A DNA stretch of 61,495 nt, filler included, from Hausera hauseri (taxonomy: Eukaryota): NCBI GenBank assembly GCA_046269625.1. It is 12 parts of 12 records of this genome, joined end to end, with 100 filler letters (N's around TTAATTAATTAA, not from the genome) between each part and the next. Parts side by side here need not be neighbours in the genome. Positions count along the whole stretch, not along the records: positions 1 to 4,012 come from JBJURY010820863.1; 11 more parts are not named here. The stretch is one strand, 5' to 3'. This document shows positions 1,045-25,828 of this stretch, piece after piece. Under the pieces are notes generated by a model, which had not been told where the DNA came from, did no database searches, and saw only the letters and a list, made by a program, of their open reading frames with translations. How positions within the stretch are numbered: position 1 is the stretch's first letter; every line of letters starts with the position of its first letter. A program made the position numbers and the translations under genes.

Positions 1045-1770
1045 TGATAAGCTTATGGGTTATAAAAGAAGTCTGGGTTTTATCAACCCTAAACTTATAC
1101 TATAAAACGATAATACTCTAAGTAGTCTAGGGTAATTTACTCCCAAGACCTTACTCTTTATTAAGTCTTTTAAGCAGCCTGTGGGGTCTGCTTTAGAAGT
1201 TAATTTTAACTTACGTGAGTATCGATCACTAGGAGGTACACTAGTGTCGTATCCCCGGATTTTATTTTGTAGGTTAGACAACCGTCTTATGGACGGAATA
1301 CCAAAAAGGGGCCCTAAGTTTATTTGACTTTTAATTATCCTTATAATTTACACTAGAATTAAAGAAATAAAATTATATTAATTGAACTAAAAACACTGTA
1401 CAAAAATAAAAACATACTTACATGAGTTGAAGAAATACATAGCGACGGTATACGACAAAGAAAAGAATTAAGAATTATGAAATTCAATGTAGTGGTAGCG
1501 TTTATATACTAAATCAAGTAGTTGCAAAATCACAAGATAATTAGTGATAATTACAAAAAATTAAATTACATCATATGATAAATCAAATAACATAACAGTT
1601 AATCGGCTACTAATTACTACACACGCAGCACGATTAATCTTAATGATTACGTCATTAATTTTATGCGAAATCCATTATTTTGATCACAAATAAAATCAAA
1701 AGTCATAAACACATGTCAAAAGTCATAAACACATAATGATTTGCAAATTCAGGTCAATTTGTTGTCAACA
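1045..1770 (-). repeat. LTR (TG...CA, ~726 bp)
   Basis: Minus strand starts TGTTGAC directly after a polypurine tract and ends TTATCA just before the PBS. TATA-like TATATAAA near 1501-1508; 20-bp tandem repeat near 1698-1735. Confidence 0.8.
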
Positions 1771-4012
1771 TTTCCCTCCTCAGATTGTGTTGTCCTCAAC
1801 ACCAGCGGGTAAGTTTCCAAGACTCCGTTATCATATCTGTAATTGGCGGAATCTAACCGCAACCATTGTTTTCCTTTCCGGATTTTTTTCTTTAAAGTGA
1901 TCGTTTCCTTGGTTGATCGTTTTTTATTTTTCGTTAGATCTATGAAGATAGGCTCGTCAGAACTTATTTCCGGAGACATTTGACTCGTGGTTGGTTGATC
2001 TGAAATTGTAACTTCTGGGGTTTTATCAGTGTCCATCGGTTCAGGAATCGGATTAGAAGGAGTTTTTAATAAGACTTGATGTGGAGCTTTTTTTAAAACT
2101 GGGACTGTTCATTTCCAAAAAAGGTTTTTATAATTGATTCTCGTTCATTGGATTGTTTTTGTTCATGGGTATCATTATTTGTTTTATATTCAAGAATTGA
2201 TTCGTAGACTTTTAACATTACAAGAGCTTTTTCTCGGGTACGGAGGGGATAGACTATATCATTGTACTTCATAAGAATTTGTTTTTGGGTAAGCTTTCTT
2301 TCCGGGTTTATTTCGCAATGATACTGCAAGTCACGGATACCATGAATAGCATTAATATCAACCAAATCCAGATGCAAGTTAGTGTTATATACATCCATTC
2401 CAACTATAAGTTTTCCATTTAATTTTTGCCTGATTACCGATCTTATTTGGTGAGCATCCATTTGTCCTTGTATATCCATTTCCTTCAATCCTGTAATTTG
2501 ACTGTTATAATTATCAATTCTGTCTCTCGGAGTGATTACTTCATCGAGGATAATGTTTCCCTGTAAGTCCATAATGGTTATTTCTATCAACGTTATTTCT
2601 TTATTTCGTAATGGTGTTAATAGGTAGGCGGAATTAACTGCTACGATATATATTCTATTTTCTCTTACTTTTGGTAATCGACAGAAAGACATTCCAGATA
2701 CCAATTGTTCTCGGTTTGGTAGGTTAGAAGGGTATAAGGGTTTTTCGTACTCTATTTCAGGTAAATTTTCTCTGCGAGTCACTTCGATATATACAATTGC
2801 GGATTGTCCTCCACATGTTCGTAGTATTATTGTAACATTTTTGTAGAATCTTTTGTCTAATCTGACTGTCGAAAATAATGGGACTTCGAGAATATCTGTA
2901 AACTCATTCAGGTGGGCTCTACTTTTTAACTGTAATTTTTCTTTTGCTACTGATATATAGACAGAGGTTGTTCGGCTAGAGATGTCAATAAGGTCCGAAA
3001 GTTTTGTCGATGCGTTTGGCAATTTGATGATTAGTCCGGCTCTCTGATCTACTAAATGACCTTTTAAGTTATTTGGGATGAGGCTGGCTTTTCCGAAGTA
3101 CATGTAATCCTTTTCAGTGGTCTGATTGATATTATTAATAATATTGAAGTAGAATGATTTTGCTCTGTCGACTGATTCTGAACCTTCTTGAACTAAAAAG
3201 AAACAAATTAATATCAACCAAGAAAGATTTAGAAATGGTTTATAACTGTAAATTTGTTTATTTGATTTACAATTATGGTAGGTCGTAAAAATTTCAACGG
3301 CCTTGTCTTGTAACGCTGTACAATAATGTACAATTACGTTTGTGGATCGACTCACTTGTCGGGTAATCTTTTTATTTTTCCGATTCTCATCGGTAAGCAT
3401 TAACGGATGATTTTGCCGTTCATATTTAGTCAAATTTACAGCTTGACAATTATTATTATCAAACGATTCATGTTCGGCAATCTGCCGATTATCATTGTTT
3501 AAAGGAGGCGCGCCTATACTATCTGATATATCTTCTTGGGAGTTTTCTCTTAGCAATTTTAATTGTCTTATTATCTCTTTTGTTTTACGTTGTCGCCGTC
3601 TAACTCTAGAATAATAAATTACTGGGGGCAGAAGTAAACCTAATATTACTAATAAAACACTTAATGCAACGAGTATCCAGAAGTATTTATCAGTGTTTAT
3701 ACTATTTTTTTGTGTAGTTATTCTTACTATAATTCTAGGAGTAGTTATCGTCTGTTTTAAAGTCTTCTCTGTACGAAAAACTGTTCGTAATTTTTCTCCT
3801 TCGTCATCTAATTCTATTATGACGACTTTATAGTTTGTGTCAGCCCTCAGGAACATACACGCAGATGTCGGTTCTTCAGGAGTTAAAACTCCTTCACTAA
3901 TCACTTTATGGTTGAGATGGCATTCAAATTTTATATTTGTGTTCTTCAGGTCAGGCACTGTAATAACTAATGAATGACTCGTTGGTTGGATAATTATATC
4001 CAGTTCTTTAGT
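1749..4012 (-). CDS. 3' accessory ORF of LTR element: FN3-like domain, TM helix, basic stop-transfer, degenerate REX4/ISG20-like DEDDh exonuclease domain (5'-truncated; probable 1-nt frameshift near 2093)
   Basis: Frame is open from contig end 4012. LRADTNYKVVI resembles the FN3 LxPxTxY motif. TM FWILVALSVLLVILGLLLPPVIYY followed by RVRRRQRK. ITIMDLQGNIILDEVITPRDRIDNYNSQITGL...KLNGKLIVG...IRDL follows the REX4 pattern. The 95-aa ORF 1749-2036 extends upstream to ~2100 in the -1 frame. Confidence 0.7.
1771..1781 (-). promoter_or_regulatory. Polypurine tract
   Basis: Minus strand GAGGAGGGAAA abutting TG of the LTR. Confidence 0.75.
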
Positions 4013-4169: not shown

Positions 4170-4188
4170 ATCCCGGGTCACGGCACCA
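4170..4188 (-). promoter_or_regulatory. Primer-binding site complementary to the tRNA-His 3' end
   Basis: Minus strand TGGTGCCGTGACCCGGGAT, 3 nt after ...TTGAACA. tRNA-His ends ...GTCACGGCACCA. Confidence 0.8.
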
Positions 4189-4191
4189 GTT

Positions 4192-5664: not shown

Positions 5665-7020
5665 TCAACAGTTTGAACAGACGTACACTGCGCAATTGTT
5701 ACAGATTGGATTGCTGCACTGTTTACAACGCTGCACTGTCTTGTTAGTCTTACACTGTCGGCAGAATACTCTGGCACTTGTAGTGGCCGATGGTACTGAT
5801 GACTCGTTCGCAAGAAGACGTATATTGTTTTTCTTATCCAATTCACCACCACATAGCTCTACACCTAACATCTTTAAAAACTGTCGACGAACTTTTTTGG
5901 AACTTTCAGTAGTATGATACCAGAGAACAAATGCATTGAAAACCGTCGCATCAATCATGTGTTGAAAAACGTACTTTGGCCAGCGACAAGTGCGTTTGCG
6001 AGATGTGTAAATTGCACACATCTGGTCAAGGTGGTCGACTCCACCTTTCCATTTATTGTACGAATAAATAATTTCTGGCTTTCCACTACTAGCACTGATA
6101 TCGCCTGCTGTATGCTCACTTGACAATATTAAAACTCGTCTATTCTTCCGTGGTACATGCGAGACGAGAGGATCTAGCCTTATGGTTTTTACTTGAGAAT
6201 TCTGTTGGCACCTTCCAGCGATCCATCTGAGGGTTCCAATAAGTCCCAAGCTCCTCATACGAAGTTCATGAAGCACTGCGAGAGAAGTAAAGGAATTATC
6301 TGTAACCACTGTTCTGCCTACAGTGAGATTTAAGACAACTTGGTAACCCAACCAGTTGCACGTCCAGTATCTTTGTCGATACGTAAGTATGGTTTCATTC
6401 CGAGAAAATACCCCGTGCTGGCATGATATAGGCACGAGAACTTCAAACAATACTTATCAGGCTTCTAAGGCATATATTGTTTGAAGCTTCATCGCCGTCG
6501 AAATGGTACAACGTCTCATCAACAGTGACATATTCACAGAGAATGAACTGTTTTGACAGCTGTTGTACCCATACATACAAGTCATACAGAGCTCTTATGG
6601 GCACAAATTTAGAATGTAGTTGAAGAGTTGATCTAGTACTAATTATATCAAATCTAAGATATTTTGTAATCACTTTAAAGCTAGTGCCCGACATGAACTG
6701 ACATATGCATCTGCATCCTTCAGGTTCTGACCAGACTGCCCGGATTGGATCACCACAACCCTTATAAACTCCTATTAGAATCTTTACTCAGATATAAGTT
6801 TCCCTTTCCTTCCTGCTAGTCACGAACTCTGCATTACTACTATGGGCCTTCTCATTACTGCACACATTAACATTATTCAGAATCTGATCAGTTATGTAAA
6901 TTTTCCAGTTTAAGAGAGCCGTGTTTCCACAATGATGACGACCAAACGCTCTTAGTCCACCAGCAGCTCTCATCATGTTAACTGCCTGACGACGACCTTC
7001 TGCCAAAGAGTCAGCATACC
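5665..7020 (-). mobile_element. piggyBac (PGBD4-like) transposase, frameshifted
   Basis: YVTVDETL, VVTDNSFTS, YNKWKGGVDHLDQM, RKRTCRWP and C-terminal Cys-rich domain CRQC...CKQCSNPICNNC...CSNC, spread over several frames. Confidence 0.9.
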
Positions 7021-8050: not shown

Positions 8051-8959
8051 TCAACCAATAGCCCGCTGCAGCCAGTCCCTCCTATTATAGTGTACCTTGG
8101 TGTCCCTGCTATCCCAAAGGCGAAGTTAGCAAGAAAATTTGATAAAACCGCCTTAGAGACCCATCAGAAATGCCACCATTTTAAAGTTTTTGATGACCTC
8201 CCAGCTATACTTGTCATACNNNNNNNNNNNNNNNNNNNNNNNNNNNNNNNNNNNNNNNNNNNNTTAATTAATTAANNNNNNNNNNNNNNNNNNNNNNNNN
8301 NNNNNNNNNNNNNNNNNNNTGAGACATTTCACGACCGATACAATCAAACAGTTTCGTATTCTGCGCTGGTAAATCGACAGATTGCTGTTGCACGGTCGTT
8401 TCGTTTAACTTTAAATCCACGTTTAATTGATTTAGAGCATCAGAAAGTTTATCCAAATTTTCACCGAAAGTCGTTTTACACGAAAGTTGTACTTGGGTGC
8501 ACATAGAGACTCTGGATCATTCAATGACATCAGTACGGGCGTTTGCAGAAAATGCATTTCATAGTTGCGAAAAATTCGTTTCGGTAAAAATATCTGTGTT
8601 TGGCGCGACGACGCCGACGGTTTTGATTTTTCTCGTTTACGTATTCCACCAATCATTGCATTTCGTCTTTTCAACGTCGATTTTGCTGCTGCTTTCTGAG
8701 CAAGTTCTTGTTTTGTTTCCAGACAATTGGCCTGCAGACAATCACCCGGTTTTTCTAATTGTTGTTGGACAGGTCGTTCCAGCAGTTTGACATTAGTATC
8801 GTCTTTTTGGTTGTAGCCAAACAACCACAACCAATCTGAACTTTCATCATCATCATTGGCGTCATTGAGTAGAATTGTTTTTTCGTTGTCTTCCATAGCA
8901 GTAATGTCTGAATGGGCATGGGAATGGTATTTATAGTTTGTTGTTGTTGTGCGATATAC

Positions 8960-9435
8960 ATTACTTTGATTCAGTAAAAAATTTATGTAATTTTTAATTT
9001 GATTAATAATAGGTTCATAGTCCACTCTCCGAATACCAAGTACAGCAATTTTTCCAGTGCTAAACACATTGGCACAAGGTAGACGAAGCGATATCAGTCT
9101 CAGTGCAGGAAAGAGTTTGGGTTTATGCATACATTCAGTTGCAGCGACTATTGCTAATTTGTACAGATTGATTGTTTGGTTGTAGTCTAACTGAGTCGTT
9201 CCGTTATTGATTGTATTTTGCAAATGACAATTCCGAATGGTGGTAGTTTACTGTTGTCACCTGTGATTGGTTTGGGACAACCCATAATACGACACTTTCC
9301 TGATTGAAATACGATGCATGTAAAATTCGGTGGACACCGGAGGACATACTGCCTCGGATTCCACGGATTAAAAGGTAATGTGTTTATGTCACACCACTTG
9401 GCAACACGTCCGCGGTAAATGATATTAGCTATCAT
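8960..9435 (-). pseudogene. TATA-binding-protein (TBP)-like two-repeat protein, frameshift near 9200
   Basis: Repeat 1 IANIIYRG...TCIVFQSGKCRIMG. Repeat 2 KIQSIT/..INLYKLA...HKPKLFPALRL...ANVFSTGKIAVLG (TBP: IQN...IRLE...YEPELFPGL...IFVSGKVVLTG). Confidence 0.8.
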
Positions 9436-9531
9436 TAAGGATATATTGTTTATACTGTAACTATTGATATGCGCGTGTGTAAAACGATTATAAGCAAATC
9501 ATGTGGCGAGGAAAGGTTGTATTATTATTAG

Positions 9532-10191
9532 ATGAAGCTGCAGAATGATGCCATTTTTCAGATTGTAGGCTCCAGTTGAAGTGGCAAAACACACTTTGTA
9601 TGTAAACTATTGCAGAACTACCGTGACATGTTCCATTCATCGCGGTACAATCATATATACTGGCATCAAGGTGTTGGTGATGATGGTGAGTCCAGTTTGA
9701 AACATCGTGAATTTTGTAAACTGAAATCGATAACGGTATTTGATGGGTTTGATGAGAACTGGTCAGAGAGATTACGCAACGGTGACGTTATTGTCATTGA
9801 CGATTTATTTCAGGAAGCCGCGAAACAATGGGATTTCAACATCCTGTTCACGAAGATTGCATGACACCGCGGTGTGACGGTTATTTTAATTACGCATAAC
9901 ATGTTCCACCAGGGCGTCCAGCATAGAACAAGAAATCTAAACGTACACTATTTGGTGTTGTTTAAAAATCCCCGTGATCAAACTATCATTCATTATGTTT
10001 TACGACAAGTATTTCCTCACAACCGAGCCTACTTGATAGATGCATATCATAATGCTACGAGCAAGCCACATGGATATCTGCTTATTGACTTTACACAACA
10101 GTGTCCCAACGACATGCGTGTACGAACAGATATTTTCAATCAGAAGGGTGGTGCATGTGTCTATAAACAAATTCGAAAATCAACGACATGA
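9532..10191 (+). pseudogene. Polinton packaging ATPase (FtsK/A32-like)
   Basis: Walker A IVGSS*SGKT, Walker B VIVIDDL, FTKIA*HRGVTVILITHN, YLVLFKNPRD, KPHGYLLIDF. Two in-frame TGA. Confidence 0.9.
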
Positions 10192-10403
10192 TTATGACAA
10201 AACGGAATGAAGAATTCCCAAAAAACAATTGTTAAATGTAAACAATCTACTACCAAGCGGGTGTCCGGCAGCAAAAAAACGCGTATCAAAACGAACCACC
10301 GCTACAATCAAGCGATTAATCAATTCTGTGCTTCGAACAGCAAAAGCAGCTGCTAGGCGCAAATTACCATCAAAGTGGCAACGGTTATAAACAAATACGT
10401 CTC

Positions 10404-10754
10404 ATGATCAATACATCCACAAAAAGCATGCAATTCAAACGTAGTCAGCCGTACTTTATTGCTTTGCTCAAGGCATCTACGAGACATAAACGAAACATGC
10501 TACAATCATTTCCACAGTTTGTAGTAGACGATTTGATCGAAATTTTATACAATATCGTTGTGGGTCACGTTGACATTGGTAACGGAAAGCGGAATTTACT
10601 AATGTATCGAAAACAACTCATTGGCCTTGACAACTCCCGTAGTAAAGGACTGAAACGGAAGATTCTGTACCAGCAAGACGGCGGATTCCTTGATGAAATT
10701 CTACCGGTTATCACGTCATTACTGGGTGGACTCATTGGTTCTGCAACAACATGA
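10404..10754 (+). CDS. Small Polinton virion protein with QxGG/FL protease-type site and amphipathic C-terminus
   Basis: EILYNIVVG...KRKILYQQDGGFLDEILPVITSLLGGLIG; position within the Polinton module. Confidence 0.6.
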   Translation: MINTSTKSMQFKRSQPYFIALLKASTRHKRNMLQSFPQFVVDDLIEILYNIVVGHVDIGNGKRNLLMYRKQLIGLDNSRSKGLKRKILYQQDGGFLDEILPVITSLLGGLIGSATT

Positions 10755-10917
10755 TAGTATAAACAATAACGGTAAGTATATGATGATTCGACGATATGGG
10801 TGCATGGTTTTCATCATTTTTCCCCAGTTTACCTAATCTTTCATTTACATTTTACGTTTTAATTGCCGTAATGCTAACAAAAACGAAATCACCAGCGACG
10901 ACAACACCGACGGCAAC

Positions 10918-11940
10918 GATGGGCTGCTTGTGGTTCGACCCGCGTCATCCGTCGGCTATACTGGCGTCGACAAACGTGCAAAGACTGTCAAACAGACTCG
11001 TCAACAAACCCAACGTTGACTCGGGAAACAGTTAGCACACAGCCTAAATAAACCGATAAGAAGGCGGTTTCCAACTCGTGCATACCGTGATTCCGGTGTA
11101 AATAATGTATGACAAATGGATCTGATGGAAATGATTCCGTACGCCAACATCAATGATGGGTATCGTTACGTACTGACATGCGTTAATGTATTCGGTGGTT
11201 TGCACGTGCAATTGCCGTGAAATCTGAATCTGGTAAATATCTTGCCGACGCTGTTCAGACACTGCTAATGCAACAACAACAACAACAACAATAACAACAA
11301 CCGATGCATTTACAAACGGATTTGGTAAGGAATTCTAAACTCGCACATTGCAGCGGTCTTGAAACGGTTCGGCGTAAACCATTACTCGGTGTTTCCCAAT
11401 ACTAGACTGCTCTTGTTGAACGATTTAATCGAACATTGCGCAGTCGCCTAAACAATTTTTTTACGAAACAAGGCAACAAACGCTGGGTCGATGTACTACC
11501 GTATATCGTGGTATCAATAGATTACGGCCAGTTGACGTACTCGATGATTTGAACATGCGGCTTTATCAAAACAACCGACGAGGTCGACAAGCAATTAAAT
11601 ATCGCCCAGAATATAAAATCGGTGCTTACGTATGTATTTCGAAAATAAGTACGACGCCATTCATTAAGAATTTTAATCAGAACTGGAGCGACTACGTTTT
11701 TCGCATTTCGGCAAACAACACAAAACAAACATCTGTCGTGTACGTTTTAGAGGATGAAAACGGTGAGGAAATACGCAGTAAATTCTATGAACAGGAACTG
11801 CAGGTACTGCTTAAGAAACCCTATGTATACCGCATTCAGGAAATTTGACGTTCACGCGGAAAAGGTTCGAATAAACAATATCTCGTCAAGTGGCACGGAT
11901 ACACTGCACCGAGTTGGATTTTTGCATCGCAGATTAAGTG
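10918..11940 (+). pseudogene. Polinton retroviral-type integrase with C-terminal chromodomain
   Basis: WFDPRHP, PIRRRFPTR, QMDLMEM, YRYVLTCVNVF, LQTD, LVERFNRTLR, FIKNFNQNWS, FYEQELQ, then KQYLVKWHGYTAPSWI. Confidence 0.9.
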
Positions 11941-13008
11941 ATGAGCACTTATTTGATACTTGATAGTATATTATCAGAACATGACAACAACAATAACAAT
12001 ACCGCTAAACCGTTTACCATGGCATTGGACCAGCCGCTCGACTTACGCCAGAGAGCCTGAGAAATGGCTTTGGTGAAATTCACGTTTAAATTTTCACCAA
12101 TAACAATATGTGAGAACAGTGGAACATACTATACTCTCGTAAGACAATCTCCTGCATCTAATCGTTTGCAGTTAGTCCGAGACTCTAATGGAATATTTCA
12201 CGTTCGCAATTTCCAACGGCAATATTTCCCGGTTTATATTTTTCATTTAAACAATCGATTGGTGCTAAAACACAAACATCCCATTGAATTGCAAATTAAA
12301 TTACTAGCCGACGTTCAGGCATGGGGTTTTCGATCATCTGTCAATGTGCGCTCGAAAGGTTTGCAGCTCGGTGGACAAAGTATAATTAGTGAAAATTTGA
12401 ACTTTTCCACTGTGAAAACAACCGATGTTACAGTGAAGTGGCAAAAGACTGAATCATTCTTTTACTCTCATACAACAGGAATTGGTTTTCTTACGGAAAC
12501 GGAAATAGAATTGTGTGCAACCATCAAGGCAGTAGCTCAGTTGGCTCTCAAGACATTTCAATTAAATTCTGATAGTCGTATTTCATTTACACTGCACAAT
12601 AATGTTATATATTTTGCCTTAGATGAACTATTGACTAGGAATCTGGGTTTTAAGAAACGAGAATTTGGTCAAACCGGCAGCGGCAGACGGCCCATTGTTT
12701 CTAAACACAAACCACGTCTCTACGAAGCATTTCATCCTATAAATTTTTTAACGGATCTAACCGAACCTGTATATGTTGGTGGAGAACGTAAATAACTATT
12801 GGCTTTTATTGGACTGGATTCGGACACGTACAAAACACTGGGTGAAACTGCTCATGTAAATATCATCCGGCCCATGTATTTATCGTTGTCTCACAATGTT
12901 GTACACAGTATTTCCGTGCATATAGTAGACGAATTTTGGAAACCCATTAAATTTCTGTTTGGAGCCAAGAAGCATTTGTTGCTACATTTTCGTCGTCGTC
13001 GTCGTTGA
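11941..13008 (+). pseudogene. Polinton penton/minor capsid protein paralog 1
   Basis: MSTYLILDS...NTAKPFTMALDQPLDL...*EMALVKF and C-terminus TDLTEPVYVGG...PMYLSL...SISVHIVDE...LLLHFRRR, one frame with 2 stops. Confidence 0.75.
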
Positions 13009-13032
13009 TAATAAACAAACTGCGTCATCAGT

Positions 13033-13077
<45 letters not shown>
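13033..13077. repeat. (CAT)n microsatellite
   Basis: About 15 CAT units between the two penton genes. Confidence 0.95.
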
Positions 13078-13083
13078 GAGATC

Positions 13084-14162
13084 ATGAGTATTTACGTGGT
13101 GTTGCCGAGCAACAGTTGTCCGACGACTTGTCCAAACAATTCCGCTAGTAAATATGTTGTAGATTGGAGCAATCCTTTGGATTTATCTGCTAGATAATGG
13201 GAGGTTGCACTGACGGAATTTAACTTTCCCTACGTACCGGTGACATTGAGAGGTAGTATGAAAATAACGTACAATAAGACTGTTACTGAAACCAAAACAC
13301 ATTCTTGCACTCTGACACTTACTAACAATGAAATAACAGTTGGAGAATCGGTCATTTGCACGACCGAAGCAAATTACGGTTCACACAGCAAGATTGGTGT
13401 TTCTATTTTAGATCGAAACTTACATTTTATGGAAGATTTTGAATTTACTGTTACCTCTGAGTCCTCTGAGATGGCACAAAAATTTGGTTTAAAAAATACA
13501 GAGTAAAAAAGTCAACATATTCAACGTGAATATGTGGTTTGTCCAAGATTAAGTCCCGCATATTACCAGACAACGGTGAAATTTACCTATACAGCAGAAA
13601 GCGTGCCAACGTCATACGTATCGATTGGAGACAGTGTCTATTGCGAATCTGTAGCACATCTTTGTCAACACTTTTCTTCAAATCAAAAGTACAAGGAGAT
13701 ATTTAAAGTTTTCGAGTCAGATGCAATTGGTACATTAAATTTGAACTTACTAAGGATATTGTTGATATTTCATGGGACAAAGTTTTGGCTATGGTATTCG
13801 GTTTTGAAAAACATAGGTGTAAGGCATCGAATACGAAAACGGCACATGGTGCAACACTTAAACGCAAACTGAAAACTGGACGAAGTCAAATGTACATTTA
13901 CGTAAACGTTACCGAACCGATTTTGGTGGATGGAGTACGTGTACCGCTACTCTGTCCAATTTATCCGAAAAGCAGTAAATATACCGCTGACGACAATGTC
14001 ACTGTCAATATCGTTAATCCAATGTACCTACCTGTGGCAACTACATCAACAAACAATGTTGAAGTCAATATCAGATGTGACGCAGGTTACTTTATTGAAT
14101 TTTCTTACGGTACCCCAACCAGTCTAACTCTTCATTTCCGTAGAAACTATGATAGATTCTGA
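13084..14162 (+). pseudogene. Polinton penton/minor capsid protein paralog 2
   Basis: MSIYVVLPSNS...NSASKYVV...PLDL...WEVALTEFNFP and MYIYVNVTEPILVDGVRVPLL...PMYLPV...VEVNIRCDAG...LTLHFRR. Confidence 0.85.
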
Positions 14163-14436
14163 AATTGTTTCCATTTACAATAAACCTTAGCTGGGCGGTG
14201 AACTGCCGTATTTCCTTGGTAAACAGTATGGCTCTGGGTGGTTGCGTACATTGGAACGCTTAATATTTCCGGTGTTGAAACGTATTGGATCTGTGACAGC
14301 AAAATCAGTACAAGACGTATTATATAAAAACAAATCGATTTTACCATCACTGAAGGAACACACCTTGACAGAAATAAAAAACGCTGCACCGGGAGTCGTT
14401 GAATCAGTCAAAAGCAATTCGCTGGCAGTGGCTTGA
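14149..14436 (+). pseudogene. Polinton small core (pVII-like) protein
   Basis: GGELPYFLGKQYGSGWLRTLERLIFPVLKR (QxGxG...PxLK pattern), directly upstream of the MCP. Confidence 0.65.
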
Positions 14437-15240: not shown

Positions 15241-16129
15241 GATGTAATCATAGTTGTTATTCGGAAATGCAGTTGCAAGTGGAGCATTGCACGCTCTTTT
15301 GGCATTCTGTTTCCTTGTGTTTATTTTCCGTCTTGTTGCGTTTGTTCAATATCATTGATTTGTATTGAAGAGGTGCTTTGTTCATTGTGGTTCTGAGACA
15401 TGTCCGAAAATCGCCTACGTGCACAGCTGCCGGCGAATAGCCACGAGAAGGGACATACTGTGGATTCTCCGAATGTTCGAGTCGGCTGCGGCGGTCCCTC
15501 AAACTGGAGGAAAAGGTGACGTTTGTTGTATCGAGGTATGAATACTGAGTTTTTATTAAGCAGAATGGAGCATACGAGTTCACACACCCTGTCGTTTGTC
15601 GTCAACATACAGAGGTTTTTCAGCGTGCTTCCAAGTATCTTCATACATCTCTTACGAAATGTTCTGTAAGGATGATATTACTCGGGTTCTTTGTGATGAT
15701 GTTGTTGTCGTTTTCTTTTTGTGTTTTTTTTTCCCCCTCTACTTTTGTTATGGTTGACCTCTGGAATATTATCGGTTACAAACAATTCAGCTCCAGAATA
15801 TCGGTTGATACGGTATGTTTTAGTTGTTCTCCGTCCTGTTTGTTCAGAGTGGTGCTAAATATACGCCTATTATCTCATAGACCTCTTTCATTCTTCTCAA
15901 TTTTTTTTTTTAAATCCTTATTATTCGCATCACTCAAACATGTTGTTGTTGCTGCGATCCAACGCGTATGACTCTGAGCTGTAAAATGTAGACCTGACTG
16001 GTTGCTTTTATGATGATCCTGATAATATTTGTTCCTTCTTTTTTCCTATAAAAATGTGCGAAGGTTGCACTTGCTTGACTTTTATCCTTTCCTTGGCTAT
16101 ACTTCACCTCTTAACGTTTCACCATCCAT

Positions 16130-16894
16130 ATGTCCATTTACCCACATCTTGTATTTTTACTGCTTCTCACCGTTACGGCTACTGTTTTTGCACAGGATCC
16201 TGCTGGTGGTTGGTTGTCATATGCCACTGCCTCGTGTCCCGCCGGCACGCACTTAACACATTTCCAGGGGCGCTGGCAGGTTTTGGGCAACGCACCCAGC
16301 AGTGGCGCTTATTATTCTCCATGGATCGGCTCAGACACGTCCGACAACCTGAATCTTATACAGCCGGTAAACCCATGGACGTTTTCGAGTTGGGCTTTTT
16401 ATACTGAATATTTTCAGTGGGAACCAGGGTATAATTCTAATTCGAACAATGTGAATTGTCAAACCGGAGATTGGATGCGTGGTGTGATCCATTACGATAA
16501 AAATAACTCATACACGATTCTTCAATATGACGAGACCACGAACAAGGGTAGCTACCAAAATGTCGTTCCTCAAAAAGATGCGTATGGAAAGGAAAAGAAG
16601 TATACGATTCTCTACGTTGTATTCGAAAAAGTTGCCAACTGTAATGACTACCCCCCTGACGAAAAAATCACCTTCAGAGATCTGATTGTGGAATGCAACC
16701 ACAAACGCATTGTGCCAAAATGGAAGACTTCATATGTTGAAGATGTTTGTCAATTCCGTGCTCATGTAGTATCCCCTTCGACTATTGTCATGACGTGGAA
16801 TACGAGTGCACCGAGCAACAAAGCGAAGGTTGCGATTCAATATCGTAAAAACGCGGAACGTCTAAATGAAATGAAGCGTGGGTTTATGCACTAA
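16130..16894 (+). CDS. Secreted beta-rich hypothetical protein (signal peptide; possible peptidase G1/concanavalin-like fold)
   Basis: Intact 254-aa ORF, N-terminal hydrophobic segment ending VFA-QD, Trp-rich SPWIG...LIQPVNPW motif, preceded by polypyrimidine tract. Confidence 0.75.
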   Translation: MSIYPHLVFLLLLTVTATVFAQDPAGGWLSYATASCPAGTHLTHFQGRWQVLGNAPSSGAYYSPWIGSDTSDNLNLIQPVNPWTFSSWAFYTEYFQWEPGYNSNSNNVNCQTGDWMRGVIHYDKNNSYTILQYDETTNKGSYQNVVPQKDAYGKEKKYTILYVVFEKVANCNDYPPDEKITFRDLIVECNHKRIVPKWKTSYVEDVCQFRAHVVSPSTIVMTWNTSAPSNKAKVAIQYRKNAERLNEMKRGFMH

Positions 16895-17364
16895 GAGCGA
16901 CAGCTACACCAACATGACAGCGCAGAACCTTGTCATCAGGGTGCGTTTTGTTTCCTGTTTTTATTCTTCTTTATTTTCTCCGTTACAAACATGAAGGTGA
17001 AACATCCTATAATTCTTAAGGACGGTTGTGAACCAGACAATTATGGACTTTGTACGTGGATGCAGCTATGGAAAAAAGAGAACTGACGTAGCAACTGATT
17101 GTAAGTTATGAATGTTTTTTTTTTTTTTCAACTTTTCCTTTTGCTTTGATGTATCTCTATGTGCGTGTGATGTTGTATTTTGTGACTTTAATGCGGCCAC
17201 TCATGGTATTTTCGTTTCGGATTCCTTCTTTTTTTTGCGCAATGCGGGCTACTAGTACGAGGAAAAAAAGTATCGTAGGATTTTCTGTCAACTCTAGGTG
17301 ATAGGATAGTATATAAACGACAGTTGCTGTGTGTGTTTGTACTGTCTTAGGTTGGTGAGGTTGG

Positions 17365-18870
17365 ATGTGCGCGTTGGGGACACTTTTGTGCCTTGGTGTG
17401 CCAGGTGGTTTTCAACCGATTAGCGATGGGAATTGCGTAGCGGATAAGTATTTGGTTGATGGACGTGATTTTCATTGTTTTGTGCGCAAGGATGAGTCGC
17501 TGTTATCTGGGATTTCGAGCGCTAATGGACACATTGCCGAGTCTGCGATTAAGATCGTTGCGCCATCGCTCACTCCGTTTAACATTGCGCTTGTGTTGCT
17601 GTCTGATGGGGCTGTTGTGTATTTGTCGGTGAATCGCGACTATCACCTTAAGCGCGTTACGTTTGACTCTGAGGTGTCTGAGAAGTCTCAGTTGGAGAAC
17701 CCTAAAATTGTTGACATTGCTGCCGGTGGAACACACATGGTCGCATGTGACACACTTGGGAATGTGTACACGTGGGGGTGGAGCAATGAGTGGGGTCAGT
17801 TTGGTGATGGGAGTGCATGGAAAAGGAAGGTGTATGAGGAATCTTTTGCGATCGCAGGAACAGGCGGGTCCAATGATGGTTGCTGTGGGAGTTTTTTCTG
17901 TTGTGATAGTGACGGGGAAAAGATAATTCTGACCACTCCAAAGCGACTTAGCAGCTTTGGTTCTTGTAATAATCGACCGGCAATTGTGCAAGTATCGTGC
18001 GGTAGACGGCACACTTTGTTTCTCTCTGCGACGAAGCGTTGCGTATATGTTTGCGGGAACGGGGCGAACGGACAACTAGGCCTCGGACCGTCGTTCGCAG
18101 TTTCACCTTGGCCGTTGTCTGTCAAGTCTCTCGTAGGATGTTGTGTAAAGGCTGTGTTTGCGTCACCAGAGGCTGATCATTCCATTGTGTTGTTAGAGAC
18201 CGGAAAAGTTCTTGTTTTTGGTGAGAATAGCGTTGGAACTCTTGGCACTGGATCTCAAGCCACACTCTGGAGGCCGTCTCGGATCATTTATCACAATAAT
18301 ACTAGAGTGGCTCCCATTGCTCTCAAAGAAGCATGCGAAGCGAACTTGAAAACATATAACGCTGCTGTTGCAGCTTTTGGCACTACCAGCAGCTATTCGT
18401 GTCCTCGAAGAATCAAGAAGACCGTGGAGTCGCTCACATTTAATGAACCCGCTGCAGATTCCCTGTCAACAAGCGCGATGTGCACTATTGTTCAGGATCG
18501 TGATGGATTTTTGTACACTTCCGGAATGCGGCCAGTGAGGATGGATGCTCAGATGAGGAATGCTGTTGGAGCTATAGGTCGCCATATTGAGAAGACGAAA
18601 GGGAGCATTTTTGAAGAAGTCGCTGTTGAAACGGGGCCTTATGCCAAGGGGATAGCATGCAACGGTTTTACAATGTTTATGAATGCCAAACATGCGAGTG
18701 AAGTAGCGTATTTCGTCGGGTCGGTAAAAGACCGTGATGGTGAGATTGTTACTGCATCTGGGCTGCAAGGTGCTTTCTCTGTTGGCAGTATTCAGTTTCA
18801 ATTTACCGGAAAGGTTCTGAATATTTTTCCAGTCGTTGGTGGTGCAATCATACAGTTGTGTTTCTCTTGA
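17365..18870 (+). CDS. RCC1-repeat protein
   Basis: IVDIAAGGTHMVA...GNVYTWG...WGQFG; IVQVSCGRRHTLFL...YVCGNGANGQLG; DHSIVL...GKVLVFGEN...GTLG. Confidence 0.92.
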   Translation: MCALGTLLCLGVPGGFQPISDGNCVADKYLVDGRDFHCFVRKDESLLSGISSANGHIAESAIKIVAPSLTPFNIALVLLSDGAVVYLSVNRDYHLKRVTFDSEVSEKSQLENPKIVDIAAGGTHMVACDTLGNVYTWGWSNEWGQFGDGSAWKRKVYEESFAIAGTGGSNDGCCGSFFCCDSDGEKIILTTPKRLSSFGSCNNRPAIVQVSCGRRHTLFLSATKRCVYVCGNGANGQLGLGPSFAVSPWPLSVKSLVGCCVKAVFASPEADHSIVLLETGKVLVFGENSVGTLGTGSQATLWRPSRIIYHNNTRVAPIALKEACEANLKTYNAAVAAFGTTSSYSCPRRIKKTVESLTFNEPAADSLSTSAMCTIVQDRDGFLYTSGMRPVRMDAQMRNAVGAIGRHIEKTKGSIFEEVAVETGPYAKGIACNGFTMFMNAKHASEVAYFVGSVKDRDGEIVTASGLQGAFSVGSIQFQFTGKVLNIFPVVGGAIIQLCFS

Positions 18871-19467
18871 TAGACATGCGGTACATTTTTGATTCAAGTT
18901 TTTTTTTGTTTTGCCCTGTTTTTTTTTTTTCCCCCTACTTTTGCAACGCGTTTTCCCAGTGAACGTTAGTTGCTGTGCTCGTGAATAAATTCAGTTCGTT
19001 GTCATTCGCTTCCATTCTCTTATCTTTATCATTGCGGAGTGAATGCTATATGTAGTTACCATGTATTGTGTTCTGCCTGTACTGATTGATTATGATTCGT
19101 GTATGTCAAATTAACATGAAAAAAATAGCGAGGCGGAGAGGCCGATATGATCTCAATGCATTCTTACGGAAAACAGTGGTATATGAAACCTTGATGATAC
19201 TGGCTGTAGATAGTGTATGCTATGACGGTGAAAGGTTGAATCGTGTAACTGTTGGTTAATATGTTATTGTCACATACTGATTCTATTCTGACGCATGTCA
19301 CCTTCATTTGTGTTTATCTGTACTTTGTTAGTTGTTGCTGTACATTTATGATTCATATTACTCCGTCAAGAGAGCAAAATTGTGTCCTTAGTCCTTTTTA
19401 AGTTTTGAAACAAACAGTCGTTTTCTTTAATCATATTAATATTGTGGTAGCTACGCTTTTAACTTAT

Positions 19468-19884
19468 ATGCGGCGCTGCTTGATTTCTCTCTCTATTCGA
19501 CGAAGCATTAAATGCACTACAACACGATATGTCCCAGTCATTTCAGCATCACCTATCACATTCGCTGCACTGGCGCACGGTGGAATGATTCACTCACGTT
19601 TCTATTGCGACGCACCCCGTGCTGGGTAATACCTATTATCGAAGGACGACGTGCTGGCTCGTGTACTTGAGGTTGTGAAAAACTTTGAAAAGGTCGATGC
19701 GTCCAAGGTGACTGCTGAATCACACTTTGTGAACGATTTGGGTTTAGATTCCCTTGATGTTGTGGAGATGGTCATGGCCCTGGAGCAGGAGTTCATTCTC
19801 GATATTCCGGACCACGATGCCGAAAAGATTCAGTCAATCAATGATGCTGTGGAGTACATTTGTCAGAACCCAATGGCTAAATAA
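19468..19884 (+). CDS. ACP: Mitochondrial acyl carrier protein (kinetoplastid type) with one in-frame TAA at 19627-19629
   Basis: Arg-rich presequence MRRCLISLSIRR..., then *YLLSKDDVLARVLEVVKNFEKVDASKV...LGLDSLDVVE...EQEFILDIPDHDAEKIQS...QNPMAK, all in one frame. Confidence 0.92.
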
Positions 19885-20309
19885 TCTGGGTGCGATTTAA
19901 TGCTTCAGTGGATGATTGACAGAATGTAAGTAACCAAGATACTCAACTAATCAACTTACATAGGCAGTACAGACGTGATAGATGCAACCTGCGATATATA
20001 TATACAATTTGTTTTTTTTTTGTCGTACTGTGTTTGAAACATTCTCTGTGTGTTTAAGTGAGTAACCGAATTGTCTTTGTTTTTGAAATAAGATTGTTTT
20101 CTTTTATATGTATTTAGTCTGGCAACGTTATCTTGATTTATGTCTTTGTTGCTGACTTATTTTTTCCTATTGCTGTTATTACTCGTGGTTGATATGTTGC
20201 GGGTCAGTTATATATTTTTCTATTGTGTTTTACCTCTATTCAGAATCTCAGCATAAGACACACGCCCTCAAGGACACGATAGTGCACAACTTTCACTGGT
20301 GGCGGGATA

Positions 20310-20912
20310 ATGTCGACTTTTGGGTGCATTATCCCTGGACAGTTACCGATTACTGATTTTGCTTTAGTTGGCAACTACAAGTGGATTGCAACTGTTGGTA
20401 CGCTTCCTGAATTGTTTATTGTATTTCTTACTGGGGTTGAACCTCTGCCACCGGGGACGGCATTGGCTGTATTTGTTACATGCGAAGAGAATATTGGACA
20501 GTGTGATAGTGGCTACAGTAACAACGAAGCTTACAGTTATCTTGGTTGTGTAACCAACGAGTGTCCAAGCAGCATGCTCCGGACTCCTCTAGCAATATTT
20601 GACCGTGTTGGTTGTGGGACAGCCACGCGTGTCGGGTTATCAATCGAATCACAGGAAACAATCAGCAACCTTGGGGCTGTTTCTTCTCAGCCACTGGAGC
20701 AGTTTCGTGCAGCTATTGTGACCCGAATTGCTGAACGAATCACCAGGGATTTGTGCAGGTTTGTCACATCGTTTGCGAAACCTGTCGAGGGCGCCAGCGG
20801 CGGTGTTGAGGATGTTGTATGCCTCCCAATCTCGTGGGTAGACACCTGGCAAAGACGGCTGCTAACACGTTTACAGAAGGACTCAAACTACTTTGTCTCA
20901 CCAGAGGATTGA
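20310..20912 (+). CDS. Hikeshi/OPI10 (DUF775)-family protein
   Basis: FGCIIPG...VFLTG..PLPPG...LGCVTNECPSSM...VGLSIE...FVTSFA...LPISWVDTW...LQKDSNYF mirrors the Hikeshi pattern. Confidence 0.8.
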   Translation: MSTFGCIIPGQLPITDFALVGNYKWIATVGTLPELFIVFLTGVEPLPPGTALAVFVTCEENIGQCDSGYSNNEAYSYLGCVTNECPSSMLRTPLAIFDRVGCGTATRVGLSIESQETISNLGAVSSQPLEQFRAAIVTRIAERITRDLCRFVTSFAKPVEGASGGVEDVVCLPISWVDTWQRRLLTRLQKDSNYFVSPED

Positions 20913-22399: not shown

Positions 22400-25300
22400 A
22401 ACAACAACAACAGGAGCAACAGGAGCAACGGGATGCCAATCTGCCCAATATTACAGTTAAGTTCCATCTGAACAGATCGTACGTGGACATAAAAGCGAAC
22501 ATGTCGGCAAAGCAACAACAACAACGCCTTTAAGGCATGTTCCGCAAAATGTGCGCAACCGGTTGGAATGAGAAGTGGAGAAATTCTAACACTGCCACCA
22601 CCATCACTGCAAAGTGCAATATTATGCACTTGGAGAATTTGAAAATTTGGAAGGTGACAGGAAACAATGGTACCTGTCACATTGAGCTGCACCATATGCC
22701 AATGATTTTATTGCCGACGTAAGTGAAAAGCTGGAGGAGAAAATCGCCAACTATACCGAAAAGGGTAGTGGATGGAGAATTATAAAAATTGTCACCCTCG
22801 GTTTTATCATAACAAAGTCGAGTGACATAATATATTTGTCTGGCCGATCATTTATACCGACACCTGCAGCTCTGAAGCAGTCTCTAGCGTTATTGAATGT
22901 AAAAAATACTAACGATGAATACTGTTTCTTTACAGTATTCTGGTGGTATTGAAACATGATGAAGTGGACAGACATAGTGCATCTCGTCCAAAACAGTATC
23001 AGAAATATTTTTTCCAATTGGATTTCGATGAAAGCTGGATGCCGATGAAACTGAAAATCATTCCGGCTTTTCAACGGCGTAATCCAACACTGCTAATCAA
23101 TGTCTTCCGGTACAACATAATCGTAGAAATACCGGCGGATGAAGAAATTTACAAAAATCCTCATGTGGATATAATCTACCAAAGTCGGAACGCAAATGTT
23201 CGCTCAGTAAATTTATTATTACTGGAACAAAAAGAAATGTACCGTTACATTGCAGTGGCAAATCTGGACAGACTGCTGAACATGCAGCTTAACCATTTCC
23301 TCCAAAAATGGATACAGTGTAAATGGTATCCTGTAAATGTCTTCATGGATTCAGATCAGAAACAACATGGGCGAAACATGTGACTCTGTGAAGACAAAAT
23401 TCGTCAGGAACCACAATGTATGTCATGCCCATACAAAGAAACTCAGGTTCTCTGATTGGTCAAAAACAGACAGCCCGGCATATGTAGTATATGCCGATAT
23501 CGAAGCTATCTTACGACGGCACAACATATATGACCAAAAACATGTTCAAATTGCCGTCGGTATGTTGGTTGTCTAAATAAAAGCTGCAGGTCAACCTCAA
23601 TATTGTGTTTTCCACGGATGGAATTGTGTACGCGATTTCTTGCAGCAGTTGCAAACCATAGTGGAAACTGAAATCGCACCGTGGTATTGCGATAACAGCA
23701 CCATCAAACTTCTGATCTGAACAGATGAAGATGAACGCCTGACGTTTGCAGTCACAAATGAATGTTACCTGTGCCACAAAATATTACCGTTTGATACTCA
23801 GGAACAGCTCGTACAGGATCACGATTATTATACCGGTTGATATTTCGGAGCCGCATGTAATTTATGTTAATTGGCAAGGCGTGTGCGGCCATTCCTACCA
23901 ACTGTATTTCATAACTTCAAGGGTATTGATTGTCATCATATTTTGAAATAGACAATAAGCGGATTTCCACACTGGGAACTATCCGTAATTCCGACTACAA
24001 CAGAGAAATACCTGTCACTGTCTGTACGTATAAACCGGTTTCAGATATGATTCCTTGATTCGCTGCAATTTCTCAATGATTCTCTGGCAAAGTTGGTGAA
24101 TGCCTTTCCAGATGTGCCGCTAACAATGACTCAGTTCCTTCTACATATTGTGCGTAGCAAAGGCATATTACTGTATGACTTTGCGATATAGTACGAGCGG
24201 CTCCAGGCGGCAAATGAATTACCACCGCAATGGCCCGATATAACAGAAGAAGAATATCAGAGAGCGCAGTCGTTTTGGACAAGGCTCGGTTGTAGAAACC
24301 TGTTGGAGTACATGCTTCGCTATCTGAAATTGGATGTGTACCTGTTAGCCGATGTGTTTTATCATTTGTAGCTAAAGCATTGACAGAAGATAGGCTGGAG
24401 CCGCTCAACTTTTACTCAGTACCAGTAGTGAGTTGGGCATCAGCTCTGATGTCATTGGATTTGGATATGGAGCTGTTGCAAGACCCGGAAATGTACCGAA
24501 TGTTTAATGTTGTTATTCGTGGCGGCATGACGTTCGTCAACAAGCACCACGTAACCAGTAATTATACCACATCACTGTTGTATATCGAGATTAATAACCT
24601 GTAGGGCTGGGCGCTTTCACAGCCCTTGCCGTACGGTTCATTCGAATGGGTAGTTGACAAACAGGACCTGGACACATTACTGCAAAGTCTGCCGAGATCA
24701 AACACGACAGAAAACAGCTCAATCGGGTACCTGATGGAAGTCGATCTCGTGCGACTAGATGAGCTGCATGACTTTCTGGATGAACTGCCGGTCACTCCAG
24801 TCAGCTGAAGGTCGCCGGACTCGAAGGTGAAGAAGCTGCTTATGACGCATGAACCGAAACATAACCGCACAGTTCATTGGCGTCTGTTGCAATTTTACAT
24901 ACAGTTGAATGTACGCATTACACGGCTACATGGCGCAATCCGGTTAGCACATAGTCCGATATTCAAGCCGTATATCAGTCGGAATTCGGAAAAACGAGCT
25001 GCAGCTTGTACAAAGTTCGAAAAGGACTATTACAAGCTGAAAAACAATTCCCTTTAAGCAAAAACAGTGCAGAATCTGAAAAAGCTGCTCAATGTACGTC
25101 TATGCAATAGCGAAAAGTGGTTGGTCACGTACACGAGTATGGCGCAGTTCAGGCGATCAATGCACATTGCCGATGGATTGGTGGCGGTGCATTAAACAGG
25201 GAAGAAATTGTTCTGGACCGGCATAGTTACATCGTACAAGTGGTATTGGATCTGAGCAAGTTGCGGATGTATGAGCTGCAGTATTGCGACTTTGCACGTT

Positions 25301-25828
25301 AGCGGCAAATGTTTGACGGCTGCAATTTTGACATAATTGCCGGTGACACAGATGATTTTTTCCTGCGGCTGAAAAAAGACAATCGCAAACAGCTACTGCA
25401 GCAGATGCAATCAGATGGACTACTAGACACGTCCAATTATCCACCGGATCATCAGTTGTACAGTAGCACAATCCCCAACAAAATCGGCTGCTTCAAGGAT
25501 GAAAGTGAAGGTCGGGTTCACTATCTGGAATGGATATTTCTACGGCCAAAATGTTATAGCCTTTTAACTGACGGTGTACCGAAAATGTGCGCTAAAGGAG
25601 TTCAGTTGGCCCAGATGGAAATAAACCACGGTGATTATCGCCGTATCTACGAAGAAGAAGAAGGACAATCAAAGGTTGTTGTGTCACAAACGATCATCCG
25701 ATCGATTGAGCACCAACTGTATAAGGTTACCAATACAAAAGTCGGTTTATCATGCAATGATGATAAGCGTAAGTGGGTGTGCGAAATATGAGTTGGGCAT
25801 ACGGACATTGGCGTTTGGAATAAAATAA
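22400..25828 (+). pseudogene. Polinton/adintovirus protein-primed family B DNA polymerase with endonuclease-VII-like zinc insert, decayed
   Basis: EKGSGW, LNVKNTNDEYCF, VYADIEAIL, CYLC...DHDYYTG...AACNLC, FHNFKGID, FLDSLQF, IRGG, YIEINNL*GWA, YYKLKNNSL, AGDTDDF, IGCFKDE, LRPKCYS, KGV, DDKR. Confidence 0.92.

Follow-up and report, generated by a model that had tools for sequence, protein, structure and literature searches.

The window analyzed here is a stretch of 61,495 nucleotides from Hausera hauseri (assembly GCA_046269625.1), in which contigs are concatenated with N-linkers. The open reading frame (ORF) under study lies on the first contig (positions 1-4012), next to the long terminal repeat (LTR) of a Ty3/gypsy element, and all features of this contig described below are on the minus strand. 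The main ORF (protein P0001) runs from 4012 to 2093, 639 codons without a stop, as an earlier sequence-only reading had claimed (more than 630); its 5’ end is truncated by the assembly linker N50-TTAATTAATTAA-N50. The frame listing also contains an overlapping frame of 119 codons at 2108-1749, low-complexity and then basic, which had been overlooked and which explains the end at 1749 in the earlier coordinates. This frame is possibly the shifted tail of the same protein; it had no Pfam match, and the tails of relatives gave no significant match to it. Directly behind the ORF region we read from the sequence a polypurine tract (PPT, 1781-1771), a putative LTR of about 726 bp with TG...CA ends (1770-1045), placed from the PPT and the primer binding site (PBS), and a PBS-like sequence starting with TGG (1043-1024), which we take to be of the elongator tRNA-Met type. 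A gag frame of the next or a permuted element follows, open to the contig end (1028-3) and supported by Pfam matches to Ty3_capsid (E=2.1e-6, below the curated cut-off) and zf-CCHC (E=4.3e-5). The contig thus has the PPT, LTR ends, PBS and Ty3-type gag of a Ty3/gypsy element, with a single LTR copy. Since the main ORF lies upstream of LTR, PBS and gag, it belongs to the 3’ end of an element, at a tandem junction or in a permuted repeat assembly, which are indistinguishable from the contig. When contig pieces were placed on the stretch (run X1), the 5’ part of the putative LTR (1341-1742) had a depth of 10-15 vs about 2,000 for its 3’ part, suggesting a U3 that is fast-changing or copy-specific, and the bin around the PBS-like sequence (939-1072) had a very high summed depth.

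The N-terminal part of the protein, as far as the assembly gap upstream leaves it (residues 1-92; 3737-4012), was modelled by AlphaFold2 as a seven-strand beta-sandwich (6-row alignment, predicted local distance difference test (pLDDT) 75.5). The top 11 Foldseek rows were all fibronectin type III (FN3) domains or FN3 monobodies (probability 1.0, TM-score 0.55-0.65), with E-values of 1.1e-3 to 2.4e-3, none under 1e-3; Pfam fn3 was not detected in the window protein. With a hidden Markov model (HMM) built from five repeats of the related loci L001 and L004 (see below), window residues 13-79 were the sole significant match, first of 327 frames (E=0.001; score 17.1 vs 11.2 for the best of 1000 shuffles). 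Judged by this match, the FN3-like domain of the window is homologous to the polyprotein repeats of related elements. Behind it a Kyte-Doolittle scan gave a single transmembrane (TM) helix (residues ~110-134; 3611-3685), in which the 19-mer at 113-131 scored 2.82 and was the sole segment above 1.6. The basic stop-transfer cluster RVRRRQRKTK follows (residues 136-145; 3578-3607), an arrangement also seen in the polyproteins of L001 and L004 after their final TM. The FN3-like segment and the TM helix with basic stop-transfer that had been noticed from sequence alone were therefore both recovered. By comparison with relatives, whose polyproteins stop ~85 residues behind the TM, the next stretch (3179-3577) divides into a predicted cytosolic tail (about residues 146-220) and an open linker (221-278). 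The ORF had no match to an F-type or gB-type fusogen, by Pfam or by fold. In run X1 the summed contig depth, which is not a copy number, was 8,429-13,206 over the FN3 part (3753-4012) vs 436-1,073 over the nuclease part, and two runs showed loose contig ends at 3854; the FN3 part thus seems common to many elements that differ downstream.

The rest of the protein (residues 279-613) was modelled with confidence as two domains (AlphaFold2, 27-row alignment, pLDDT 89.5). The first one, overlooked by the earlier reading, is a double-stranded beta-helix (DSBH) of the cupin/2-oxoglutarate-oxygenase-like type (residues 279-415; 2768-3178; pLDDT ~90); its Foldseek rows in the pdb and viral libraries were oxalate oxidase, cupin PGI, TM1459 and vaccinia C16, with E-values of about 1e-4 to 2e-4. 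No HxH or HxD metal-binding motif was seen in the DSBH alignment, nor a full His/Asp/Glu set; a single His column recurs in most of the family (25 of the 29 rows scored), and there the window has Ser. Lacking the full metal site, the DSBH is likely a binding domain. The second domain has an ISG20/REX4-type DEDDh exonuclease fold (residues ~450-612; 2177-2665). Pfam by itself did not detect an exonuclease in the window protein, which nevertheless matched human ISG20 in phmmer (E=2.2e-4); the family profile matched ISG20L2 (E=4e-31), the Atlas RNase_T clusters gave 0.96 for this domain, and the model matched ISG20L2, ISG20, Pan2 and SDN1 in Foldseek (E=2e-9 to 4e-7). The fold named in the earlier reading was thus found by profile and structure searches, with limits shifted from the proposed residues 435-590, and its assignment to DEDDh rather than DEDDy agrees with the ExoIII His of relatives and with the ISG20-like structural matches. 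The motif replacements also stood: VAVNSA at residues 457-462 and VGMDVYNT at 537-544, with the ExoIII His and Asp absent as well. None of the five catalytic residues is left (A458 and N460 at ExoI, T544 at ExoII, no His or Asp at ExoIII), so the domain is a member of the DnaQ-like fold and predicted to be catalytically inactive.

The two C-terminal domains recur together as a module in other proteins. A length-unlimited protein search over 1.84 billion representatives gave 51 matches, the longest of 804 residues. In all 51 the best matching stretch lay at or after window residue 279, many began with Met at the residue equivalent to 279, and none matched the FN3-TM part. Residues 1-217 had no match among longer proteins in a weak search, and no fused relative was found in eight profile matches. 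Sorted by eye, 37 of the 51 matches, with two more from the profile search, make up 39 family proteins, the other 14 being of cellular type; the 20 clusters examined for their origin come from ENA, JGI, Logan and NCBI records. All five catalytic residues D-E-(D/E)-H-D are kept in 27 of the 39 (ExoII residue Glu in 19, Asp in 8), nine keep at most one, and three are fragments too short for full scoring. In a tree of 45 rows, the family forms a branch apart from the seven cellular-type rows (support 100/98). The closest relative of the window protein is P0002 (26-29% identity, support 100/92), and P0002 and P0013 group with the window (98/78). Because the window and P0002 have A-x-N at ExoI in common, the catalytic loss appears to be old. 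Dead members sit on long branches, and a single origin of all dead rows has a support of 75/84, which neither shows nor rejects it; P217, G260, G280 and R282, invariant in alignment A1, are retained in dead members. On this sequence evidence, proteins with DSBH and DEDDh domains are a family of element accessory proteins, most of them predicted to be intact. The 804-residue protein, P0014, has four tandem DEDDh-like domains, some of them degenerate.

Scanning metagenomes with six close family members yielded four loci (L001-L004) out of 175 pattern matches. L001 (2-9040) and L004 (1-9624) each contain one frame of more than 3,000 codons, in the order fusion protein, proteases, reverse transcriptase, RNase H, integrase, FN3-like repeats, TM, basic cluster and a tail of ~85 residues. 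In both, a Monjiviricetes-type fusion protein (Pfam Monjiviricetes_fusion; E=9e-84 and 5e-94) precedes pol; the aspartic-protease domains number two or three, and stretches resembling internal signals stand ahead of the fusion protein and of the FN3-TM cassettes, L004 having an extra cassette between the proteases, upstream of the reverse transcriptase. The polyprotein stops 961 and 335 bases ahead of the module, which is a separate ORF in both long loci and likewise in L002 and L003, hence stand-alone in all four. Another 2.5 kb along, L001 has a purine tract (L001:13822) similar to the window PPT, with TGTT behind it. Since the fusogen stands before pol and FN3-TM at the frame end, we read the FN3-TM part of the window as a polyprotein tail. 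These arrangements do not support the placement of the ORF in the env position, as the earlier reading had it. Nor was a receptor-like protein carrying the nuclease supported in the form proposed: the module stands alone with its DSBH in the four loci, and none of the 51 protein matches reaches the FN3-TM part, although the open linker of the window would allow an anchored form. By its sequence context the module is predicted to be an accessory gene and not part of an env-slot receptor. Both long loci also have a small coiled-coil-like accessory ORF (L001 9207-9875, L004 11571-12008), each starting at AG-ATG and placed differently with respect to the nuclease module in the two elements.

Fifteen bases ahead of the module start, at 3193, the window has a feature that had escaped the earlier reading, a splice-acceptor-like site consisting of a T-rich tract and AG (3193-3220), which read in frame gives a hydrophobic stretch (residues 263-274). 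Scored for T-richness, it ranks second among the 172 AG sites in 4012-1029, and first within the ORF; the corresponding site of L001 ranks first of 555. When the 28 bases before the L001 module ATG were used as a single query, the window site at 3193 was the best of 6,222 AG sites (score 14 vs 11 for the next), a likeness first noticed by eye and then scored. The module ORF itself starts with AG-AT-ATG in L001 and AG-ATG in L004.

The element is present in many diverged copies. Run X1 placed 6,222 contig pieces, 4,234 of them under 95% alike, and up to 12 contigs differ at one exonuclease-domain site; the best-matching sample is possibly the source sample and hence not independent. These thousands of pieces, and the module within the retroelements of relatives, bear out a multi-copy element cargo as opposed to a single-copy host gene. 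Among 18 listed ORF differences, eight fall in the dead domain, and six of these are synonymous vs an expected share of 0.29 (P=0.009); both variants adjoining ExoI are synonymous. In the tail behind the dead domain, one of six is. These signs agree with the selection on the ORF suggested earlier, and the dead domain appears to be kept by selection; drawn from 40 listed variants of 912, they are a hint of purifying selection and not a dN/dS estimate. A second, far more decayed relative of the module lies on another contig of the window (58253-59722, minus strand; profile match 76%, E=2e-5, hhalign). Ahead of it, where another frame starts at 59988, we noticed a second apparent exonuclease-like piece divided between two frames, together with RING-finger-like Cys patterns (61495-60900) and a frame rich in Arg and Ser (60569-59964).

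The explanation we favour, with slightly less than even confidence, is that the window ORF is the polyprotein tail of a giant ENV-before-POL Ty3/gypsy element, stop-free into a dead accessory module, and that this module is made as a soluble RNA-binding pseudo-nuclease from a spliced RNA. The missing 5’ part of the element would then encode a polyprotein of the L001 and L004 type, the acceptor at 3193 would be used, and the start codon would come from an upstream exon. Intact relatives would trim RNA 3’ ends as 3’-5’ RNases of the ISG20/SDN1 type, acting on host small RNAs or element RNA, and the dead form would still hold RNA ends, either to protect element RNA or to sequester silencing RNAs. 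From unspliced RNA a minor membrane-tethered form could arise, its module cytosolic and releasable by an element protease. Binding of RNA by the dead module is likely by analogy: the fold has been kept after catalytic loss, as in Maelstrom and EXD1, inactive DEDD derivatives described as retaining RNA binding (PMC5408684). That the spliced soluble form dominates, with read-through possible, we believe to about one half.

Several observations weigh against this explanation. The window has no pol: its first contig holds neither pol nor env, and the fusion protein of the relatives had no tblastn match in the window, so the FN3 repeat and the module are what ties it to L001 and L004. The acceptor at 3193 is a candidate read from its DNA motif, and no splice donor was identified for it. 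The L004 sites rank 17 and 129 of 791, L002 and L003 have no AG adjoining the module ATG, and no ATG follows the acceptor-like AG of the window, the first Met being residue 304, within the DSBH fold. The dead domain has a net charge of 0, and dead and intact members are alike in charge (P=0.92); the selection signal draws on 18 ORF rows among the 40 listed of 912. The 58-codon linker is stop-free, as in 0.8% of 20,000 shuffles (P=0.008), and its third codon positions are poor in GC; its openness makes a membrane-anchored form possible in this lineage. In 32 listed pieces of 7,247, in which stop codons are not visible, the register is kept in three of four contigs bridging 3193 and in both covering 3276-3610, up to ~15% divergence. 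The open linker, the lack of an ATG and the frame kept by diverged contigs, including a 12-base gap at 3525 (depth 159 of 365, run X1), speak for a true fusion, essentially the earlier idea extended by the DSBH: the module would have become the closing part of the polyprotein in this lineage, and the main product would be a type I membrane protein, with FN3 outside and the dead nuclease in the cytosol, which would tether element RNA or capsids to the membrane at particle budding, the acceptor-like site being a relic. Accessory ORFs of Burro-like elements, either separate or within the polyprotein, offer a parallel (PMC6431247). We nonetheless find this alternative doubtful, given the absence of fused relatives among the 51 search matches and the eight profile matches, the weak negative for residues 1-217 among longer proteins, an acceptor motif well preserved at the DNA level, and a net 2-base gap in the fourth of the listed junction contigs.

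Residues 263-274 could instead be an internal signal peptide, after which signal peptidase would free the module to the endoplasmic reticulum lumen or the particle surface as a binding domain, the change of compartment accounting for the loss of catalysis. The hydropathy of the 12-mer (2.9) is within the range of five polyprotein signal-like stretches (2.0-3.3) and above the L001 acceptor read in frame (1.77), and such a stretch also occurs in P0002 (3.11) and P0013 (3.18), both from the tree group of the window. In these two proteins, though, the stretch closes on a Gln, with a Met no more than two residues behind it, which is what translation of an acceptor and the ATG after it would give; a hydrophobic start is missing from four other full-length dead members, N-glycosylation sequons are not in excess (0.49 vs 0.38 per 100 residues), and the DNA match to the L001 acceptor accounts for the stretch without a signal, all of which leaves the signal peptide quite improbable. 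We assign a similarly low probability to a decaying or purely structural passenger, devoid of catalysis and of any RNA role and at most engaged in protein-protein contacts. The long branches of dead members and the far more decayed copy at 58253-59722 would suit it, as would the variation of rotifer ORF3 within a genome, which looked neutral in the available account (PMC5408684); the synonymous excess in the dead domain, the confident two-domain model with 334 open codons, and the four invariants kept in dead members do not. Finally, the suspicion of a single-copy host gene, or of a chimeric assembly, adjoining the LTR might arise from the short contig, the one LTR copy, the order ORF-LTR-gag and the fact that none of the listed contigs spans the entire stretch. 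With a PPT directly behind the ORF, no introns, the same module within two complete-looking retroelements and the number and divergence of the pieces in run X1, this is largely refuted and deserves hardly any credence.

Exonucleases have been described before in LTR elements. Bdelloid rotifer Juno and Vesta LTR retrotransposons, and Terminons, carry a DEDDy ORF3 (Rodriguez et al. 2017, PMC5408684), the activity and role of which were left untested in that report, as far as the part available to us goes. Like the family described here, it is a DnaQ-like 3’-5’ exonuclease as an extra 3’ ORF of Ty3/gypsy elements, and it shows an Asp-to-Glu motif change (‘DEED’), which may correspond to the Glu at ExoII in 19 of the 27 intact members. 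The rotifer protein differs in being of the RNase D-like DEDDy kind, with its catalytic residues intact and neither a TM nor any further domain reported, whereas the family here is ISG20/REX4-like DEDDh with a DSBH, comprises intact as well as dead lineages, and in the window is continuous in frame with FN3-TM. The window protein is accordingly not of the rotifer ORF3 type, being DEDDh-type, with residues lost and a TM in frame. GAG-ENV-POL errantiviruses with HSV/gB-type Env are reported from Platyhelminthes, Nematoda and Bryozoa (Chary and Hayashi, PMC13524379). L001 and L004 resemble them in carrying a class III-type glycoprotein upstream of pol; the words ‘exonuclease’ and ‘fibronectin’ are absent from the main text of that article, and its supplements may hold such elements unannotated. 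In the giant planarian Ty3/gypsy elements Burro/GYPSM1, gag, env and pol follow one another in a single frame (Arkhipova and Yushenova 2019, PMC6431247). These also have one huge polyprotein, with accessory ORFs separate or part of it, but the env is described as related to gypsy Env and the cargo comprises MATH, BIR, ankyrin, BCL2 and dUTPase; in the text accessible to us no FN3 is named, and DEDD nucleases are named for Terminons only.

Among cellular proteins, ISG20/REXO/PAN2 exonucleases fall in one cluster in the available text of PMC3985635. The window exonuclease shares fold and sequence profile with ISG20, ISG20L2, REXO4, SDN1 and Pan2, and differs from them in that the element proteins have their own branch and an N-terminal DSBH, the window member being without catalytic residues. 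RNA-acting domains in selfish elements have viral analogues in the arenavirus nucleoprotein exonuclease and plant-virus AlkB. Maelstrom and EXD1, and these viral proteins, are similar in using a DEDD fold for binding or an RNA-acting domain in a selfish element; they differ in being host factors or of other folds or families, any likeness being one of fold. The DSBH-DEDDh module and the FN3-TM cassette were not found in full-text literature, a coverage outside which fall most subscription papers, Repbase and supplements. Apparently new here are the DEDDh plus cupin-like module and the FN3-TM cargo; exonuclease ORF3s, ENV-before-POL elements and Burro accessory ORFs were already known.

Elsewhere in the window, the next contig starts with another PBS-like sequence (4170-4190, minus strand), behind which lies what is presumably a piggyBac-like transposase remnant (5665-6787). 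Two stretches, 8400-14200 and 22900-25800, have frames that by eye resemble the ATPase, integrase and DNA polymerase B of Polintons/adintoviruses. Intron-free genes of higher GC at 16115-20912, an RCC1-like repeat protein and a DUF775-like gene by eye, have a protist-like appearance and possibly belong to a different organism whose DNA entered the assembly.

The reason for exonuclease genes in LTR elements has been open since the rotifer report, to go by its available text (PMC5408684). The family described here offers a test set of small proteins with two domains, some intact and some dead, from elements also equipped with a fusion protein, and the FN3-TM cassette at the polyprotein end is a candidate attachment or immune-mimic protein, separate from the fusogen. 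Degradation of small RNAs by intact members, together with their binding by dead ones, would make this an animal retrotransposon silencing suppressor with a known enzyme fold. A wider scenario, which as a whole we regard as unlikely, is that a giant env-carrying Ty3/gypsy lineage captured an ISG20/SDN1-like RNase, joined it to a cupin-like domain and used it against small-RNA silencing. One branch would then have disabled the enzyme and wired it to the polyprotein end, making soluble (spliced) and membrane-tethered (read-through) RNA-end shields, the latter holding element RNA at the budding site. If true, the retroelement would have its own enzyme/pseudo-enzyme pair of RNA-silencing antagonists, with the compartment switched by splicing.

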